A stretch of 64,000 nt of DNA from Candidatus Aenigmatarchaeota archaeon (GTDB lineage Archaea; Aenigmatarchaeota; Aenigmatarchaeia; PWEA01): the NCBI GenBank assembly GCA_046539305.1, contig JBKHHE010000003.1:1369-65368 (forward strand), read 5' to 3'. The notes beneath the pieces were generated by a model. That model did not search any database and was not told where the DNA came from. It saw only the letters and a program-made list of their open reading frames with translations. Positions 9,090 to 55,536 of the stretch are shown one piece after another (within the stretch, counting starts at the first letter, position 1; each line of letters starts with the position of its first letter). Both the position numbers and the translations under genes were made by a program.

Positions 9090-11087
9090 TCATCGGTTGT
9101 ATCCAGGTATGTCCTGCGGGCCTTCGTATCCTACCTCCTCCGCAATCTTCTTCAGACAGTCCGGGTTCTTCGCGGTTCGCATGTCGCCGAGCTCCTCGTC
9201 CTCCAGCAGCGAACGCAGGAACCTTCTTATCACTTTACCGGACTCCGTCTCCGGAAGGCTCTCTACGAAGTATATTTCGCCCGGCGTCGCCACGGGCCCT
9301 ACCTCCCTCCTGACAGATTTTACTATATCCTTCTTAAGGTCTTGTGAGGGTTCTGCACCTTCGACAAGTATGGTGAACAGTGCCGGAACCTCCCCCTTGA
9401 TGTCGTGGGGCTTTCCGACGACGGCGACTTCCGCGACCCCGTCCACGGTCTGAACTGCGTCCTCTATCTCCGCCGTTCCGAGACGATGGCCCGCCACCTC
9501 CATCAGATCGTCCATCCTTCCGACTATCTTGAAGAGCTTCTCACCGTTCACCTCATAGTTAGTCTTTATACCTTCGTCTCCGGAGAAATATATTTCGTCC
9601 CCGTACCGGCTCCAGTACTCCTCCCTGTACTTGTCCGGATTCTTGTAGACCCCCCTGAGCATGCCGGGTGAGAACGGATCCTTCACCACTACGGCTCCCT
9701 TGTCCGTGGGCTCACCTTCCTTGTCCAGGATGTCGTAGTTCACGGGCGGCAGGGGAGCCCCTGCGACGCCCGGGACGAAGGGACCCATACCCGGGAGGGA
9801 TGTCAGAAGTATCCCGCCAGTTTCCGTTTGCCAGTAGGTATCAACTATCGGGCACCTTCCACCACCGACCTCCTCGAAGTACCATTCCCATGTCTCCGGG
9901 TCTATAGGTTCGCCGACGGAGCCAAGTACACGGAGAGAGGAGAGATCGTGTTTCCCAGGAAGATCTCTCCCTTCCTTTATCAGCATACGGAGGGCCGTGG
10001 GTGCGGTGTAGAACTGTGTCGGTTCGTATTCCTCTATTATATCCCACCATCTGTCCATGTCCGGGTAGTCAGGCGAGCCCTCGTACCACAGTGTCGTCCC
10101 GCCGTGCATAAGCGGTCCGTAGAGCGTATATGTATGCCCCGTTATCCAGCCTATATCCGCCGTGGAGAAGAAGAGGTCGTCCTCGTGGAAGTCGAAGACC
10201 CATTTCATCGTGAGGGCGGCCTGCACCATATATCCACCTGTAGAATGTTTTATGCCCTTTGGCTTTCCTGTGGTTCCGGAGGTGTATAGTAGGAAAGCCG
10301 TGTTCTCCGCATCGAGCTCCTCCGGCTCACATATGTCGTCGACTTCTCCCTCCAGGTCATCAAGAAAGTGGTCCCTTCCTTCCTCCATCTCCGGCTCCGC
10401 ATCCGCCCGGTTCACCACGAGGCATTTGTCAGCCCCCACTTCCTCAAGCGCATCGTTTATCCTGTCCTTGAGCTCTATGACCTTTCCACGTCTGTAGAAT
10501 CCATCCGCGGTTATAAGTATGTCGGAGCCGGCATCGTCCATCCTCTTCCTCACCGCCTCCGGGGAAAAGGCCGTGTACACAATGGAGTGCCAGGCATCTA
10601 TCCTCTGACATGCAAGAGCTGCGATGGCCGTCTCGGGAATCATGGGCATCCAAAAAGTAACGGCGTCGCCCTTTTCGACACCCAGCTCCTTAAGAACGTT
10701 AGCGAACTTCTGCACTTTCCGGTGCAGATCACCGTAGGTGAGGACCCTCTTCTCCTCGTCCACGGGCTCCGGCTCCCAGATTATCGCGGGCTTGTCCCTT
10801 TTGTCCTCCAGATGCCTGTCCACGCAGTTGTACGACAGGTTGGTCTTCGCGCCCTTGAACCACTTGAAAAAAGGTGGTTCCCACTTCTGCACGTAGTCCC
10901 AGTCGGGGTCGAACCAGTCTATCAGTTCCTCCGCCTTCTCCGCCCAGAACTCCTTCGGATTTTCCTTCGCCTTTTTATATATTTCCGGATCGGATAGGTG
11001 CGCCTTCTCCTTCATCTCTTCAGAAGGCCAGTAAACACCGTCCTTTTCCACGACCCAGTTGGTTCCTTTCTCCGACATATCACTCAA
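9090..11087 (-). CDS. acs: Acetyl-CoA synthetase (AMP-forming)
   Basis: 665 aa. AMP-binding signature 'YTSGTTGKPKG', 'WWQTETGG'-like 'YWQTETGG', and a C-terminal 'ESLPETESGKVIRR'. Confidence 0.95.
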   Translation of the reverse strand: MSDMSEKGTNWVVEKDGVYWPSEEMKEKAHLSDPEIYKKAKENPKEFWAEKAEELIDWFDPDWDYVQKWEPPFFKWFKGAKTNLSYNCVDRHLEDKRDKPAIIWEPEPVDEEKRVLTYGDLHRKVQKFANVLKELGVEKGDAVTFWMPMIPETAIAALACQRIDAWHSIVYTAFSPEAVRKRMDDAGSDILITADGFYRRGKVIELKDRINDALEEVGADKCLVVNRADAEPEMEEGRDHFLDDLEGEVDDICEPEELDAENTAFLLYTSGTTGKPKGIKHSTGGYMVQAALTMKWVFDFHEDDLFFSTADIGWITGHTYTLYGPLMHGGTTLWYEGSPDYPDMDRWWDIIEEYEPTQFYTAPTALRMLIKEGRDLPGKHDLSSLRVLGSVGEPIDPETWEWYFEEVGGGRCPIVDTYWQTETGGILLTSLPGMGPFVPGVAGAPLPPVNYDILDKEGEPTDKGAVVVKDPFSPGMLRGVYKNPDKYREEYWSRYGDEIYFSGDEGIKTNYEVNGEKLFKIVGRMDDLMEVAGHRLGTAEIEDAVQTVDGVAEVAVVGKPHDIKGEVPALFTILVEGAEPSQDLKKDIVKSVRREVGPVATPGEIYFVESLPETESGKVIRRFLRSLLEDEELGDMRTAKNPDCLKKIAEEVGYEGPQDIPGYNR

Positions 11088-11160
11088 AAGTTGGTAAGGT
11101 GCGTTTAAAAATTTTGCTATGCTTGAGCCCAGACTTATAAGACTTGGGAAGAAAGGGAAT

Positions 11161-11229
11161 ACGGGGCAATGAGCGCACCGCCCCAGTCCGACCTTCGGGA
11201 TGAGGACAAGGGTAGCTAGTGAGCCCCCT
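11161..11229 (+). ncRNA. Candidate box C/D sRNA (2'-O-methylation guide)
   Basis: Terminal stem GGGGC/GCCCC. Box order is C-like AUGAGCG, a 12-nt spacer, D'-like CCGA, a loop, C'-like AUGAGGA, a 12-nt spacer, then D-like GUGA. Tandem G.A pairs are preserved. TTATAA lies about 25 nt upstream. The D' guide is complementary to the LSU P-loop sequence. Confidence 0.55.
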
Positions 11230-11291
11230 ATTCTCTCTGCTCCAACGTTAGAGTTTTAAATCAGAGGGACGAATTGAGTTTGGGGTGAAAA

Positions 11292-11525
11292 ATGGTAGAT
11301 TTTGAAACTCTCGAAGGGACCGAGGTGACGTTCGGGGGCAACGACTTCATACAGGTTGCCAGAAAGAAGGCAGTGGACGAGGACAGTGAGAACGTCTTCC
11401 TTTCATTATCCAAGGGATTTTTTGGCGACAACGACGAGAGGATTTGGCAGAAGAACTTCTCAATCCCGGACGACGAGGAGGTCCTCGACGAGATTATTGA
11501 GGCACTGAAGAAGTTGAGAAAGTAG
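11292..11525 (+). CDS. Small acidic protein, possibly PC4/YdbC-like (tentative)
   Basis: 77 aa. The pattern '..FIQVARKK......FLSLSKGFF.....W.K.FSIP.DEE.L.EIIEAL' is reminiscent of PC4/YdbC-type ssDNA-binding proteins. The similarity is weak. Confidence 0.45.
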   Translation: MVDFETLEGTEVTFGGNDFIQVARKKAVDEDSENVFLSLSKGFFGDNDERIWQKNFSIPDDEEVLDEIIEALKKLRK

Positions 11526-11530
11526 ACAAG

Positions 11531-11695
11531 GGGGCCATAGTGTAGCCAGGCCTAGCACAGCGGACTCCAGATTTTTGGAGTTTTGACCAGGAGTACATGC
11601 TTTTCCGCGGATCTTCTGGGATGATAGAAAGTTGGATGTATGGCTATATGCCAAGGTGACATCCGCAGCCCCCGGTTCAAATCCGGGTGGCCCCA
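11531..11695 (+). tRNA. tRNA-Trp (anticodon CCA) with a 90-nt intron at the canonical 37/38 position (intron 11571-11660)
   Basis: Acceptor GGGGCCA/TGGCCCC, anticodon stem GCGGA/TCCGC, loop CTCCAG|A, T arm CCCGG-TTCAAAT-CCGGG, discriminator A. The splice sites sit in 3-nt bulges (AG|A and AC|A) around a 4-bp helix with one U.U. Confidence 0.9.
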
Positions 11696-15727: not shown

Positions 15728-15844
15728 GCGGCCGTGGTCTAGTGGCTAGGACTCGAGCCTTCCATGGGCACGCCCGGTAAATCTTTGGTCGGGCGCGCAG
15801 TCCGGAGCCAGCTCGCAACCCGGGTTCAAATCCCGGCGGCCGCA
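15728..15844 (+). tRNA. tRNA-Gly (anticodon UCC) with a 45-nt intron at 37/38 (intron 15765-15809)
   Basis: Acceptor GCGGCCG/CGGCCGC, D arm GTCT-AGTGGCTA-GGAC, anticodon stem CGAGC/GCTCG, loop CTTCCA|A, T arm CCGGG-TTCAAAT-CCCGG. A canonical hBHBh' motif is present, with central helix CUUC/GGAG and bulges CA|U and CC|A. Confidence 0.85.
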
Positions 15845-17219: not shown

Positions 17220-19904
17220 ATGTCCTGGCACGACAAGACCGTTGAGGAAGTTTTCTCCGAGCTTGGAACGTCCGAAGATGGACTGAATAATGGGGAGGCG
17301 AAGAAGAGACTGGAAGAGGAGGGTGAGAACAGGATCGAGAGCGGTCAGAGCACTTCTGCGTTCCAGATTCTTGTGAACCAGTTCAAGGACAACCTGATAT
17401 ACCTCCTTATGGCTGCAGCCCTTCTTTCCGTGTTGGTCGGATTTCTTCCAGGGCACGAGTCAAGGTATATGGAGTCCTTTATAATACTGGTCATACTTCT
17501 GGCCAACGGGCTCTTCGGTTTCTTCCAGGACTACAGGGCCGAGAAATCCATAGAGGCCCTGAAAGAGATGTCGACCTCCAAAACCAAAGTCATAAGAAGT
17601 GGGGAGGTGACGGTGGTCGATTCAAAGGACGTGGTTCCTGGAGATGTAATACAGCTGGAGCAGGGGGATGCGGTGCCTGCCGATGGAAGGCTGATAGAGA
17701 CCGAATCCTTGGCTACGGACGAGTCCAGTCTGACCGGTGAAAGCGTCAACGTTTCGAAGACCGTTTCACTTATCAAGGGCGATGCTCCCATAGCCGAGAG
17801 GGAGAATATGGTATTCAAGAACACTCACGTTGTAAAGGGCAGAGGTAAGGCCGTAGTAGTTGATACAGGGATGGACACGGAGATGGGAAACATGGCCAGG
17901 GAGATAGAGGAGGTCGAGGAGCGGGAGACGCCGTTCCAGGTGGAAGTCGATGAGATGGGGAGGAAGATAGGCTATATAGTTATAGGCATAGTAGCTATGG
18001 TCGCTCTTTTTCAGTTCCTTTTGACCGGGGCTTCACCCATAACTATATTTCTCATGGCCATAAGCCTGGCTGTCGCTGCGATACCTGAGTCACTCCCCGC
18101 GATAGTTACCTTCACCCTCGCGGTCGGTTCGAGGAAGATGCTGAAGAAGGACGCCCTTGTAAGAAGGCTGCCGGTGGTGGAGGCCCTGGGGTCCGTTAAC
18201 TATGTGGTTACTGATAAGACAGGGACCCTGACCGAGGGGATGATGACAGTCGAGAAACTTTATTTTGAGGGAGAGGAGTACGACGTGACGGGAAGGGGAA
18301 CCGAAACGGAGGGAAGGTTTCTCAGTGAGGACGGCGTCGTCGAGACTTCGAAGTTAAAACCTTTGCTGGAATGTGGTCTTTACTGCAACAATGCCGGGAC
18401 TACGGGAAAAGATTCTGACAAGGACTTCCATGGCAGTCCGACGGAAGTGGCCCTCCTCGTTTCCGGAATGAAGGCCGGTCTGGAAAGGGACAAGGAAAGG
18501 ATAAGAAGTGTACCCTTTTCTTCTCAGAGGAAGCGTATGACTGTAGTCACCGAGGAGGGGACGGCCTACATGAAGGGTGCTCCTGAGGTCGTCCTCAAGA
18601 GGTGCGACAGAGTTCTTGAGGACGGGGAAGTTAAGGAAATGACTGATGAGAGGAGAGAGGAAATAATGGAGAAGAACCATGAGTTCGCCAGGGACGCACT
18701 GAGAGTTCTGGCCTTCGCGAGAAAGGAGGTGGAAAATATTGGCGCTGAGGACGACGAGCTGGAAAGCAGGATGGTTTTCCTTGGTCTCCAGGGGATGATA
18801 GACCCTCCGAGAAAGGAGGTTGAGGAAGCTGTGGAAGAATGCAGGGACGCGGGTATAGAAGTCATCATGGCGACTGGTGATAACCTCGAGACGGCGAGGG
18901 CAGTTGGTAAGGAGCTTGGCTTTAACCCGGAGAACGCCCTCACCGGCGAGGAGCTTGATACCCTGAGCGATGAAGAGTTGAAGGATAAGCTGAGGAATGT
19001 AGAAATATTTGCCAGAGTTTCGCCGGAGCACAAGGTAAGATTGCTCGATGCTCTCCAGGAAGAAGGCTACAACGTCGCGATGACCGGGGACGGTGTCAAT
19101 GATGCGCCAGCTTTGAAGGACTCCGACGTCGGGATAGCCATGGGTATAAGGGGGACGGACGTGGCTAAGAAGAGCAGTGATATGATACTTCAGGACGACA
19201 ACTTCGTGACTATAAGGGACGCTATTTCCGAGGGACGGCACATATTCGACAACATAAGGAAGGTTACGAATCAGTTGCTTTCGACTAACTCCGGTGAAGT
19301 CATGTTCGTGTTTCTCGGAACGATAATAGGAGGCCTGTTCTTCCACGAGTACTTCACAGGGCCGAATCCCGTCGTCCTCACCGCGGTCATGATCCTCTGG
19401 GTGAACTTCGCCAGCGACGGACCACCGGCGATGGCACTTGGCGAGGACCCGAAGACTGAAGGGATAATGGAGAGACAGCCTAGGGGTAAAGATGAATCTA
19501 TAATCGACAAAAAAATACTTGCTATGATACTTGTCACGGGACCACTTGCGGCTCTGACAATGCTACCGCTCTTCTTCCTCCACATCGAGAACTTCATCCT
19601 TGCGCAGACCATGCTTTTCGTATCCCTCGCCCTTTTTGAGATCCTCATGTTTTACGTCATAAGGAGGGATTACAACCTTTCGCTTTTCTGCAACAGGTAC
19701 CTACTTTTTGGGATAGGATTTGCCTTTATTTCACACCTTGTGGTCCTCTACTCACCCGTCTCCAACTACTTCGGCGTGGTGCCCCTTGGACTTGAGCACT
19801 GGGGTTACATTGCCACCGGTCTCGGAGTATTTATGGTTCTTGAGATAGTTTTCACCAGGTTCCTTTACAGGAGATACGGGAGAAGGGTTTGCGGTGAAGG
19901 ATAG
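17220..19904 (+). CDS. P-type (P2, Ca2+/cation-transporting) ATPase
   Basis: 894 aa. Phosphorylation motif 'DKTGTLT', 'TGES', 'MATGDN' and 'TGDGVNDAPAL', with 10-TM topology. Confidence 0.9.
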   Translation: MSWHDKTVEEVFSELGTSEDGLNNGEAKKRLEEEGENRIESGQSTSAFQILVNQFKDNLIYLLMAAALLSVLVGFLPGHESRYMESFIILVILLANGLFGFFQDYRAEKSIEALKEMSTSKTKVIRSGEVTVVDSKDVVPGDVIQLEQGDAVPADGRLIETESLATDESSLTGESVNVSKTVSLIKGDAPIAERENMVFKNTHVVKGRGKAVVVDTGMDTEMGNMAREIEEVEERETPFQVEVDEMGRKIGYIVIGIVAMVALFQFLLTGASPITIFLMAISLAVAAIPESLPAIVTFTLAVGSRKMLKKDALVRRLPVVEALGSVNYVVTDKTGTLTEGMMTVEKLYFEGEEYDVTGRGTETEGRFLSEDGVVETSKLKPLLECGLYCNNAGTTGKDSDKDFHGSPTEVALLVSGMKAGLERDKERIRSVPFSSQRKRMTVVTEEGTAYMKGAPEVVLKRCDRVLEDGEVKEMTDERREEIMEKNHEFARDALRVLAFARKEVENIGAEDDELESRMVFLGLQGMIDPPRKEVEEAVEECRDAGIEVIMATGDNLETARAVGKELGFNPENALTGEELDTLSDEELKDKLRNVEIFARVSPEHKVRLLDALQEEGYNVAMTGDGVNDAPALKDSDVGIAMGIRGTDVAKKSSDMILQDDNFVTIRDAISEGRHIFDNIRKVTNQLLSTNSGEVMFVFLGTIIGGLFFHEYFTGPNPVVLTAVMILWVNFASDGPPAMALGEDPKTEGIMERQPRGKDESIIDKKILAMILVTGPLAALTMLPLFFLHIENFILAQTMLFVSLALFEILMFYVIRRDYNLSLFCNRYLLFGIGFAFISHLVVLYSPVSNYFGVVPLGLEHWGYIATGLGVFMVLEIVFTRFLYRRYGRRVCGEG

Positions 19905-49635: not shown

Positions 49636-50112
49636 TTGATGGCTTTCAAAATTTCGGTTTCTGATCCCGAGGAAGGAAAGGCTTGGCAGGTGGAAAAAGA
49701 GGCGACACCGCTCATTGGGACAGCGATTGGAGAAGAGTTCAACGGTTCTCTGATAGGTCTTGAGGACTACACGCTCAAGGTCACCGGTGGAAGCGACGAG
49801 GAAGGCTTTCCAATGAGGAGAGGAGTTCAGGGCACTGGGCGCAGAAAAGTTCTGATGAAAGGAGGCTCAGGATACAGGTCGGAGGAAGAGGGGACCAAGA
49901 AAAGGAGATCTGTCAGAGGAGAGAGCATTTCCGAGGAGATAGTCCAGGTAAATACGAAGGTTGTCGACAGAGAGAGTGACGCCGAGGAGATACCTGAGCT
50001 TCTGGGAGTGGCTTCTGAGGAACCAGAAGAAGGCGGTGAAGAGGAAGGGACAGAGGAGGAAGAGGAGGAGAGCGGCGGAGAGGAAGATCAGGAACCTGAG
50101 AAGGAAGAATAG
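49636..50112 (+). CDS. rps6e: 30S ribosomal protein S6e with an acidic C-terminal tail
   Basis: 'FKISVSDPEEGKAWQVE', 'LKVTGGSDEEGFPMRRGV'. The tail reads 'EEPEEGGEEEGTEEEEEESGGEEDQEPEKEE'. Confidence 0.9.
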   Translation: MMAFKISVSDPEEGKAWQVEKEATPLIGTAIGEEFNGSLIGLEDYTLKVTGGSDEEGFPMRRGVQGTGRRKVLMKGGSGYRSEEEGTKKRRSVRGESISEEIVQVNTKVVDRESDAEEIPELLGVASEEPEEGGEEEGTEEEEEESGGEEDQEPEKEE

Positions 50113-55161: not shown

Positions 55162-55536
55162 TCATTTGCTTCCTGTTTTTAAAGTTTTTATCTCGTCCAC
55201 GACCTCGTCCACGAGGTCCTCTGCATCACCAAGCTCGGTTATCGCCGTTGAAGCCGCTTGAACTGTTATGCCGCAGGCCCTTCCGAGCTCTTCTTTCTTC
55301 CCTACGTATGTGTAGGGGACTGATTTCTCCTCACAGATTGCGGGAAGGTGCATCACGACTTCGGGTGGTTCCACGTCTTCCGCTATTACCACAAGTTCTG
55401 CGTTACCTCTTTCCACAGCCTTTGTAACTTCGTTTGTACCAATGTTCAGCTTACCGGTGGCTCTGGCCGTTTCTACGGCTTCGAGCGTGGTGTCTTCAAG
55501 CTCTTCCGAAACGTCAAACTTCACGTAATCGGTCAT
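55162..55536 (-). CDS. rpl7ae: 50S ribosomal protein L7Ae (K-turn binding; also a C/D, H/ACA and RNase P component)
   Basis: 'GKLNIGTNEVTKAVERGNAELVVIAEDVEPPEVVMHLPAICEEKSVPYTYV'. A strong GAGGTGAT SD lies upstream. Confidence 0.9.
   Translation of the reverse strand: MTDYVKFDVSEELEDTTLEAVETARATGKLNIGTNEVTKAVERGNAELVVIAEDVEPPEVVMHLPAICEEKSVPYTYVGKKEELGRACGITVQAASTAITELGDAEDLVDEVVDEIKTLKTGSK

Follow-up and report, generated by a model that had tools for sequence, protein, structure and literature searches.

Positions 11163-11227 (plus strand) of the 64,000-nucleotide stretch of archaeal DNA analysed herein, which we call the window, very probably encode a box C/D sRNA of ~65 nt that has two guides and is transcribed independently. 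One of its guides is complementary to the P-loop in helix 80 of 23S rRNA, and the other is predicted to pair with helix 74 of the same molecule. As far as sequence can tell, the decisive evidence that this is a real RNA is its conservation and covariation in relatives.

The host belongs to the phylum Aenigmatarchaeota of the DPANN group (Nanobdellati in taxonomy), and its assembly comprises 696 kb in 17 contigs with 49% G+C, at ~90% completeness. The window corresponds to C3:1369-65368 of this assembly. On one side of the candidate RNA, at 9090-11087 on the minus strand, lies a gene for an acetyl-CoA synthetase of the AMP-forming type, with the Pfam domains AMP-binding, AMP-binding_C and ACAS_N; on the opposite side is an ORF of 77 aa (11292-11525) without a Pfam match. 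An earlier note, made by reading the letters of the window, had already delineated a box C/D architecture at this location, and on re-reading of the plus strand all of its motif coordinates were exact to the base. The elements of the locus are as follows.

11135-11140, plus strand: TTATAA, putative TATA box of the sRNA gene
11163-11167, plus strand: GGGGC, 5′ strand of the terminal stem, pairing with 11223-11227
11169-11175, plus strand: AUGAGCG, box C, invariant across the genus
11176-11187, plus strand: CACCGCCCCAGU, D′ guide of 12 nt, complementary to the helix 80 P-loop of 23S rRNA
11188-11191, plus strand: CCGA, box D′, pairing with positions 5-6 of box C′ (G-C, G-C)
11192-11199, plus strand: CCUUCGGG, D′-C′ linker of 8 nt, which can form a two-base-pair stem with a UUCG cap
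11200-11206, plus strand: AUGAGGA, box C′, invariant across the genus and co-varying with box D′
11207-11218, plus strand: CAAGGGUAGCUA, D guide of 12 nt, of which positions 2-9 pair with 23S AGCUACCC in helix 74
11219-11222, plus strand: GUGA, box D, co-varying with box C
11223-11227, plus strand: GCCCC, 3′ strand of the terminal stem, partner of 11163-11167
11229-11238, plus strand: UAUUCUCUCU, pyrimidine-rich tract and probable termination region

The terminal boxes depart from the consensus RUGAUGA/CUGA at three of seven positions in box C and at one of four in box D. Nevertheless, they retain the features needed for a K-turn, in that G3 and A4 of box C engage box D in the tandem sheared pairs, a G5.U2 wobble and a C6-G1 pair follow, the UGA of box C and the GA of box D are invariant, and the pair between position 6 of box C and position 1 of box D is always Watson-Crick. 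Internal D′ and C′ boxes are likewise present, and the guides are 12 and 12 nt in length, although the D spacer extends to 13 nt in three congeners. Most known archaeal sRNAs carry near-canonical RUGAUGA/CUGA boxes, unlike the RNA described here. A longer outer helix proposed by RNAfold (GGGAAUA/UAUUCUC, 11155-61 with 11229-35) was rejected because congeners do not conserve it, and because it is upstream of where transcription is likely to start.

Conservation of the box and spacer architecture in relatives had been set beforehand as a test of the assignment, and this architecture proved to be widespread. A BLAST search showed that the seven other genomes in the genus all carry the locus, with 73-94% identity. 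In the resulting alignment of eight genomes no change is seen in the four boxes, ACCGCCCCA or GGGUAGCUA, whereas the D′-C′ linker, the outer flanks and the sequence near the promoter drift. A covariance model built from nine sequences (R1) matched 87 of 301 Aenigmatarchaeia genomes, representing 46 of 151 genera, with exactly one full-length match in each. A second model built from 31 sequences (R2) matched 126 of 201 genomes in the class of a Micrarchaeia metagenome-assembled genome (G061), again once per genome except for one genome that also carries a second, partial match. These counts are lower bounds because the large searches were run under stricter Infernal filters. Model R2 also gave weak matches (28-33 bits) in nine of 201 Thermoproteota genomes, and these have only the P-loop guide in common with the candidate RNA.

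In the 31-sequence alignment, 87% of cells are standard pairs, compared with 64% in shuffled alignments and 33-41% after displacement of the partners by 1-3 columns; the alignments used (A4 to A6) were fitted to the model structure, which favours that structure, although their register is set by the invariant UGA and GA. Changes on both sides are seen in nine of the ten pairs. Position 6 of box C and position 1 of box D form AU in 11 sequences, CG in 11 and GC in 9, such that none of the 31 is unpaired, and the corresponding contact between position 1 of box D′ and position 6 of box C′ is GC in 13, CG in 11, AU in 2, UA in 1 and other combinations in 4. The terminal stem behaves in the same way, as in column 3:94 (UA 13, GC 12, CG 5, AU 1, none unpaired among 31) and in the variants GAUGGC/GCCAUC, GGUAAC/GUUACC and GGGCAC/GUGCCC. 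The proposal in the earlier note that the deviations in the boxes are mutually compensatory can therefore be recast as true covariation, wherein the structure of the motif is kept and its letters are not. On the strength of these alignments, the box definition of the family is RUGA-n-n-n together with n-n-GA, with position 6 of the former pairing with position 1 of the latter.

The D′-C′ linker varies in length. Its 8 nt are replaced in congeners by hairpins of ~25-30 nt with CUCU, GUGA or GCGA loops, and by ~40 nt in one homologue (L119). Such latitude in length is consistent with the linker being dispensable and serving to close the internal K-turn. The longer linkers, found in L096, L100-L102 and L119, turn what would be an internal K-loop into a stem-closed K-turn.

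The D′ guide matches its proposed target in the host's own rRNA. The 23S rRNA gene (C2:31210-34210) reads GACUGGGGCGGUAC at its own positions 2310-2323, and the complementarity to the P-loop suggested in the earlier note was borne out there over 11 contiguous pairs, comprising positions 1-11 counted from box D′, with a mismatch only at position 12. The duplex energy is -23.7 kcal/mol, and the chance that a fixed-register 11-mer matches anywhere in 4.47 kb of rRNA is ~1e-3 (4471/4^11). Application of the N+5 rule selects the host's G2315, which is the second G of the GGGG run and is equivalent to E. coli G2251 (Dennis et al. 2015, PMC4644070), again as had been predicted. Changes in this guide among relatives are mostly C to U facing G. 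In two relatives (G018 and G011) the pairing moves from positions 1-11 to positions 3-12, and the register that places G2251 at N+5 is retained. In the Thermoproteota matches the guide, which has the near-identical sequence GCCGUCCCAG, starts with G rather than A, and its position 11 co-varies with a U or C in 23S rRNA; GCGGC is found at the corresponding site of the P-loop in five Thermoproteota 23S sequences (Pca, Tte, Sac, Mka and Iho; PMC4644070).

Two further observations concern this guide. Position 11180, which lies opposite P-loop nucleotide G2253, is a C in this genus and would form a full Watson-Crick pair; the homologous column is U in nearly all Aenigmatarchaeia, Micrarchaeia and Thermoproteota homologues, which gives a G.U wobble that is odd inside a guide-target duplex. 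In addition, strings antisense to the P-loop were encountered in contig C6 of G055 (L056) and in a Bathyarchaeia contig (L086), and both were set aside since they lack proper C′ and D boxes. The former is a 16-nt copy at about 49982-50005 that is preceded by AUGAACG and followed by CAGA, and it is probably due to chance. The true homologue in G055 is located at C8:146587-146663.

The P-loop is a known target of archaeal guide RNAs. Of the seven archaea studied by Dennis et al. (2015, PMC4644070), three are predicted to methylate G2251 by means of a C/D guide, and the dual-guide sRNAs assigned to this site are Thermoproteus tenax sR7, Pyrobaculum calidifontis sR36 and Methanopyrus kandleri sR13. 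According to a 2024 review (PMC11542601), Gm2251 is conserved in all three domains, and its equivalent in H. marismortui, Gm1950, is attributed to aFib plus an sRNA. The candidate RNA shares with these archaeal sRNAs the predicted target (alignment position G2520), the type of RNP, spacers of ~12 nt and the N+5 rule. The same universally conserved ribose is methylated in eukaryotes under the guidance of C/D snoRNAs that work with Nop56/Nop58 and Snu13 (yeast 25S Gm2619, human 28S Gm4196 and Arabidopsis 25S Gm2620), whereas bacteria employ a protein-only SPOUT enzyme, which is RlmB in E. coli (PMC11542601). One difference between the candidate and its archaeal counterparts resides in the second guide: T. 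tenax sR7 couples G2520 with U2544, whereas the RNA described here would couple the equivalents of G2251 and U2438.

The earlier note had left the target of the D guide unplaced, and we propose that this target is U2504 in helix 74. The best site for the guide in the host's own rRNAs is AGCUACCC at LSU 2501-2508, which pairs with guide positions 2-9 through only eight Watson-Crick pairs (duplex energy -15.1 kcal/mol) and is located directly 5′ of the peptidyl-transferase sequence GGGGAUAA. The N+5 rule points to the host's U2504, which corresponds to E. coli U2438 by a hand alignment in which A2517 was set to E. coli A2451 (E. coli line of PMC4644070 supplement 2). Both guides thus have an rRNA complement with a plausible N+5 nucleotide, and both targets are in domain V, ~190 nt apart. 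Eight base pairs alone would make a weak case, and covariation between guide and target adds strength to it. Specifically, a compensatory change from G-C to A-U is found in G018, G011 and G074, where the guide AGGU accompanies ACCU in 23S rRNA. Two other relatives (G169 and G022) have CCU in 23S rRNA with a guide that still reads GGG, yielding a G.U pair, and the combination of an AGG guide with a CCC target is absent from the sampled genomes with a readable 23S gene. In Micrarchaeia the D guides are GGAGUAGCU or GAGGUAGCU, which fit the CUCC and CCUC variants known for 23S rRNA, and CGGAGUAGCUU or CGAGGUAGCUU are perfect 11-mers against these variants as seen in the 23S rRNAs of other archaea. 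Guide position 2 is U in three congeners and faces an unchanged C in the one that has a readable 23S gene (G007). Since 23S genes were recovered for nine of 22 queried relatives and a few others (G005, G007 and G061), this covariation rests on about a dozen genomes.

Precedent for the helix 74 target comes from another DPANN archaeon. Nanoarchaeum equitans sR14 (Randau 2012; sequence in PMC4644070 supplement 1) has a D guide, AAGGAGUAGCUG, that forms 9 bp with N. equitans 23S AGCUACUCC and points to the U that the candidate D guide also selects (E. coli U2438); the guide segment GGAGUAGC on 23S GCUACUCC leads to this U as well. Moreover, the labels 'N14' and 'S128' are marked in PMC4644070 where the alignment block with the U2438 site begins. 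The two RNAs differ in that the D′ guide of sR14, GAAAGCACAAU, is not a P-loop guide; no N. equitans sRNA is assigned to G2251 in PMC4644070, which assigns that site to three other species. The boxes of sR14 include a canonical C′ (GUGAUGA), the others being AUGAAGA, CUGA and CAGA. In the table of eukaryotic sites in PMC11542601 we saw no Nm at the equivalent of U2438.

Given the limited pairing of the D guide, we considered whether the locus might encode a real C/D sRNA of which only the P-loop guide is functional, with the D guide being an orphan or serving 23S 2831-2837 (UAGCUAC), a tRNA or an mRNA. The 8-bp match is consistent with such an arrangement, as are a 7-bp alternative at LSU 2831, a 10-bp match outside rRNA at C1(-)168370, of a kind of which about one is expected by chance, and an A.C mismatch at guide position 7 in a Norongarragalinales genome of the Micrarchaeia (L079), where positions 1-6 and 8-12 do pair. 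Other targets were rejected: the LSU 2831 site offers only 7 bp, a 16S site ('AUUAGAUACCC') has a mismatch adjoining the N+5 position, and no match was found among 11 tRNAs identified by ARAGORN without intron search. Against this rival, the core of the D guide, GGGUAGCU, equals the P-loop guide in its conservation across two phyla, and it co-varies with helix 74 (AGG with CCU, and GGAG with CUCC). The pairing in Micrarchaeia would reach ~11 bp on the CUCC and CCUC variants, and N. equitans sR14 directs 9 bp to the same U, with its label N14 in that alignment block. For these reasons, assignment of the D guide to helix 74 is strengthened by the compensatory change, the Micrarchaeia variants and sR14, and we regard a single functional guide as unlikely.

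The genome encodes the three core proteins that an archaeal C/D RNP would need. A gene for the K-turn-binding protein L7Ae (124 aa; PF01248, 103.5 bits) lies in the window itself at 55162-55536 on the minus strand, and the genes for fibrillarin (PF01269, 288.5 bits) and Nop5 (PF01798, 204.4 bits) are adjacent at C9:15221-16493, also on the minus strand. We envisage a mechanism in which AUGAGCG/GUGA (C/D) and AUGAGGA/CCGA (C′/D′) would each fold into a K-turn, L7Ae would bind each K-turn, and a Nop5-fibrillarin dimer would then assemble on the complex. Pairing of the D′ guide with the helix 80 P-loop would place the equivalent of G2251 in the active site of fibrillarin for 2′-O-methylation, and pairing of the D guide with helix 74, on the 3′ strand and adjoining the 5′ side of GGGGAUAA, would present the equivalent of U2438 in the same manner. 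Because both targets are in domain V around the peptidyl-transferase centre, the RNA may add a folding role, for example by holding both segments while this centre assembles.

Taken to its extreme, such a role could be the sole function of the RNA, which would then act as an assembly chaperone on two segments of domain V, or as a scaffold bound by L7Ae, without catalysing methylation. The degenerate boxes, the G.U wobble opposite G2253 that is conserved in most lineages, and the placement of two targets flanking the peptidyl-transferase centre could all be read in this way, and PMC4644070 ascribes a role in the folding and stabilisation of rRNA to the methylations in question. Against this, G2251 stays at N+5 when the pairing shifts from 1-11 to 3-12, as in the two relatives noted above. 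Furthermore, the Gm2251 modification is present in all three domains (PMC11542601), and fibrillarin has been retained in a genome of 0.7 Mb. We judge a function wholly independent of methylation to be quite improbable, and favour a methylation guide with two targets.

The sequences surrounding the RNA suggest that it is transcribed on its own. The TTATAA that the earlier note had placed about 25 nt upstream starts 27 nt ahead of position 11162, where the model begins, and it is kept as CTTATAAG (CTTTTAAG in one) in eight of eight genomes of the genus. A simple pattern search found a TATA-like hexamer between -42 and -14 in 40 of 50 homologues, mostly 25-28 nt upstream. At the other end, the site of UAUUCUCUCU is occupied in congeners by AUUUUUCC or AUUUCUCC 3′ of the stem, the tract being pyrimidine-rich or oligo-U. 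We take these elements to be a putative promoter and a putative termination region.

This arrangement bears on the idea that the element acts in cis as a K-turn in the 5′ leader of the 77-aa ORF, for example as an L7Ae-responsive regulator, with no guide function in trans. The RNA is indeed on the same strand as the ORF and 65 nt upstream of its start. However, a second conserved TATA-like element, GTTTTAAA (11253-11260), separates the RNA from the ORF and speaks for the latter being a transcription unit of its own, and the pyrimidine tract follows the RNA. There is also no reason for a leader to keep two 12-mers antisense to rRNA in N+5 register across two phyla, and we consider a cis-acting leader to be very improbable. 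Finally, conservation effectively excludes a chance pattern, which leaves the dual-guide sRNA as the reading we adopt.

The RNA has no counterpart in Rfam. A scan of the whole window at gathering thresholds gave no match at the candidate, and a search of the locus in E-value mode returned only noise: mir-555 scored 14 bits, and sR36 reached 9.3 bits with an E-value of 6, whereas its gathering score is 55. Accordingly, the RNA matches no existing Rfam C/D family such as snoPyro_CD or the sR families. The degenerate but co-varying grammar of its boxes explains why standard C/D finders miss the family.

We also scanned the genome for other guides of this kind. A pattern for the full architecture (a stem of at least 4 bp, AUGA, 10-13 nt, nnGA, linker, nUGA, 10-13 nt, nnGA, with both box pairs pairable) gave two matches in 696 kb, namely the candidate RNA and one weak match with a GU stem, compared with none in the reversed genome and 0, 1, 0, 0 and 0 in five shuffles, a result that sets the candidate above chance. 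A scan for canonical RUGAUGA...CUGA in the genome produced one unconvincing locus. Relaxed versions of the architecture yielded 42 matches versus 29 in decoys and 32 versus 17, with the candidate locus alone being credible. A guide-first scan, in which 10-mers antisense to rRNA were sought between TGAnnn and nnGA, showed no excess (71 real versus 96 decoy), and again the candidate alone was convincing. Four scanners of rising laxity, all of them crude, showed no excess over decoys and revealed no second convincing stand-alone guide locus in this ~90% complete genome. The repertoire of stand-alone guides may be very small, an idea that we hold provisionally because of the crude scanners and the completeness of the assembly.

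Several other RNAs came to light during this work. A stretch of 86 nt on contig C5 (minus strand, 19407-19492) is free of ORFs and has an 8-bp terminal stem around AUGA...GUGA with no complementarity to rRNA; this stretch may represent a further K-turn RNA. At 11531-11695 (plus strand), 300 nt downstream of the sRNA, there is a tRNA that contains an intron of ~90 nt, and its anticodon is CCA (Trp) by our own reading. Its Rfam tRNA score of 43.4 bits was obtained in E-value mode on a short region only, and it was missed both by the whole-window scan at gathering thresholds and by ARAGORN. A second intron-containing tRNA is found at 15728-15844 (plus strand; 117 nt; Rfam 53.7 bits). Given that ARAGORN without intron search found only 11 tRNAs in 696 kb, many tRNAs of this organism may carry introns or be atypical.

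Box C/D sRNAs as a kind, and guides to the P-loop in several archaea, were known already. What is new here is the pairing of a helix 80 guide with a helix 74 guide, its occurrence as a single-copy family across two DPANN phyla, and the absence from Rfam of what is in effect a new family. In the open-access library that we searched, no paper mentions both 'C/D box sRNA' and 'DPANN' in its full text.

In practical terms, the finding adds a missing non-coding gene to the annotation of many DPANN genomes (87 of 301 and 126 of 201 sampled in two classes), and it provides a ready covariance model for a family that has no Rfam entry. The homologues also constitute a natural mutational series through the sequence space of the K-turn, in which positions 5-7 of box C, and likewise 1-2 of box D, are free to vary provided that position 6 pairs with position 1. 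Such variation is relevant to the recognition of guides by L7Ae and Nop5, and to the reasons why consensus-based C/D finders overlook these RNAs.

With regard to the biology of these organisms, ribose methylation of the P-loop is predicted to be RNA-guided even in archaea with genomes of ~0.7 Mb, which would make them a natural system in which to study indispensable rRNA methylations. More speculatively, we suggest as a tentative possibility that reduced DPANN genomes keep L7Ae, Nop5 and fibrillarin for essentially one stand-alone guide plus the tRNA-Trp intron. Gm2251 and Um2438 might then represent the irreducible core of archaeal RNA-guided methylation, and an RNA that binds helix 74 and helix 80 at once might be a required factor in the assembly of the peptidyl-transferase centre.
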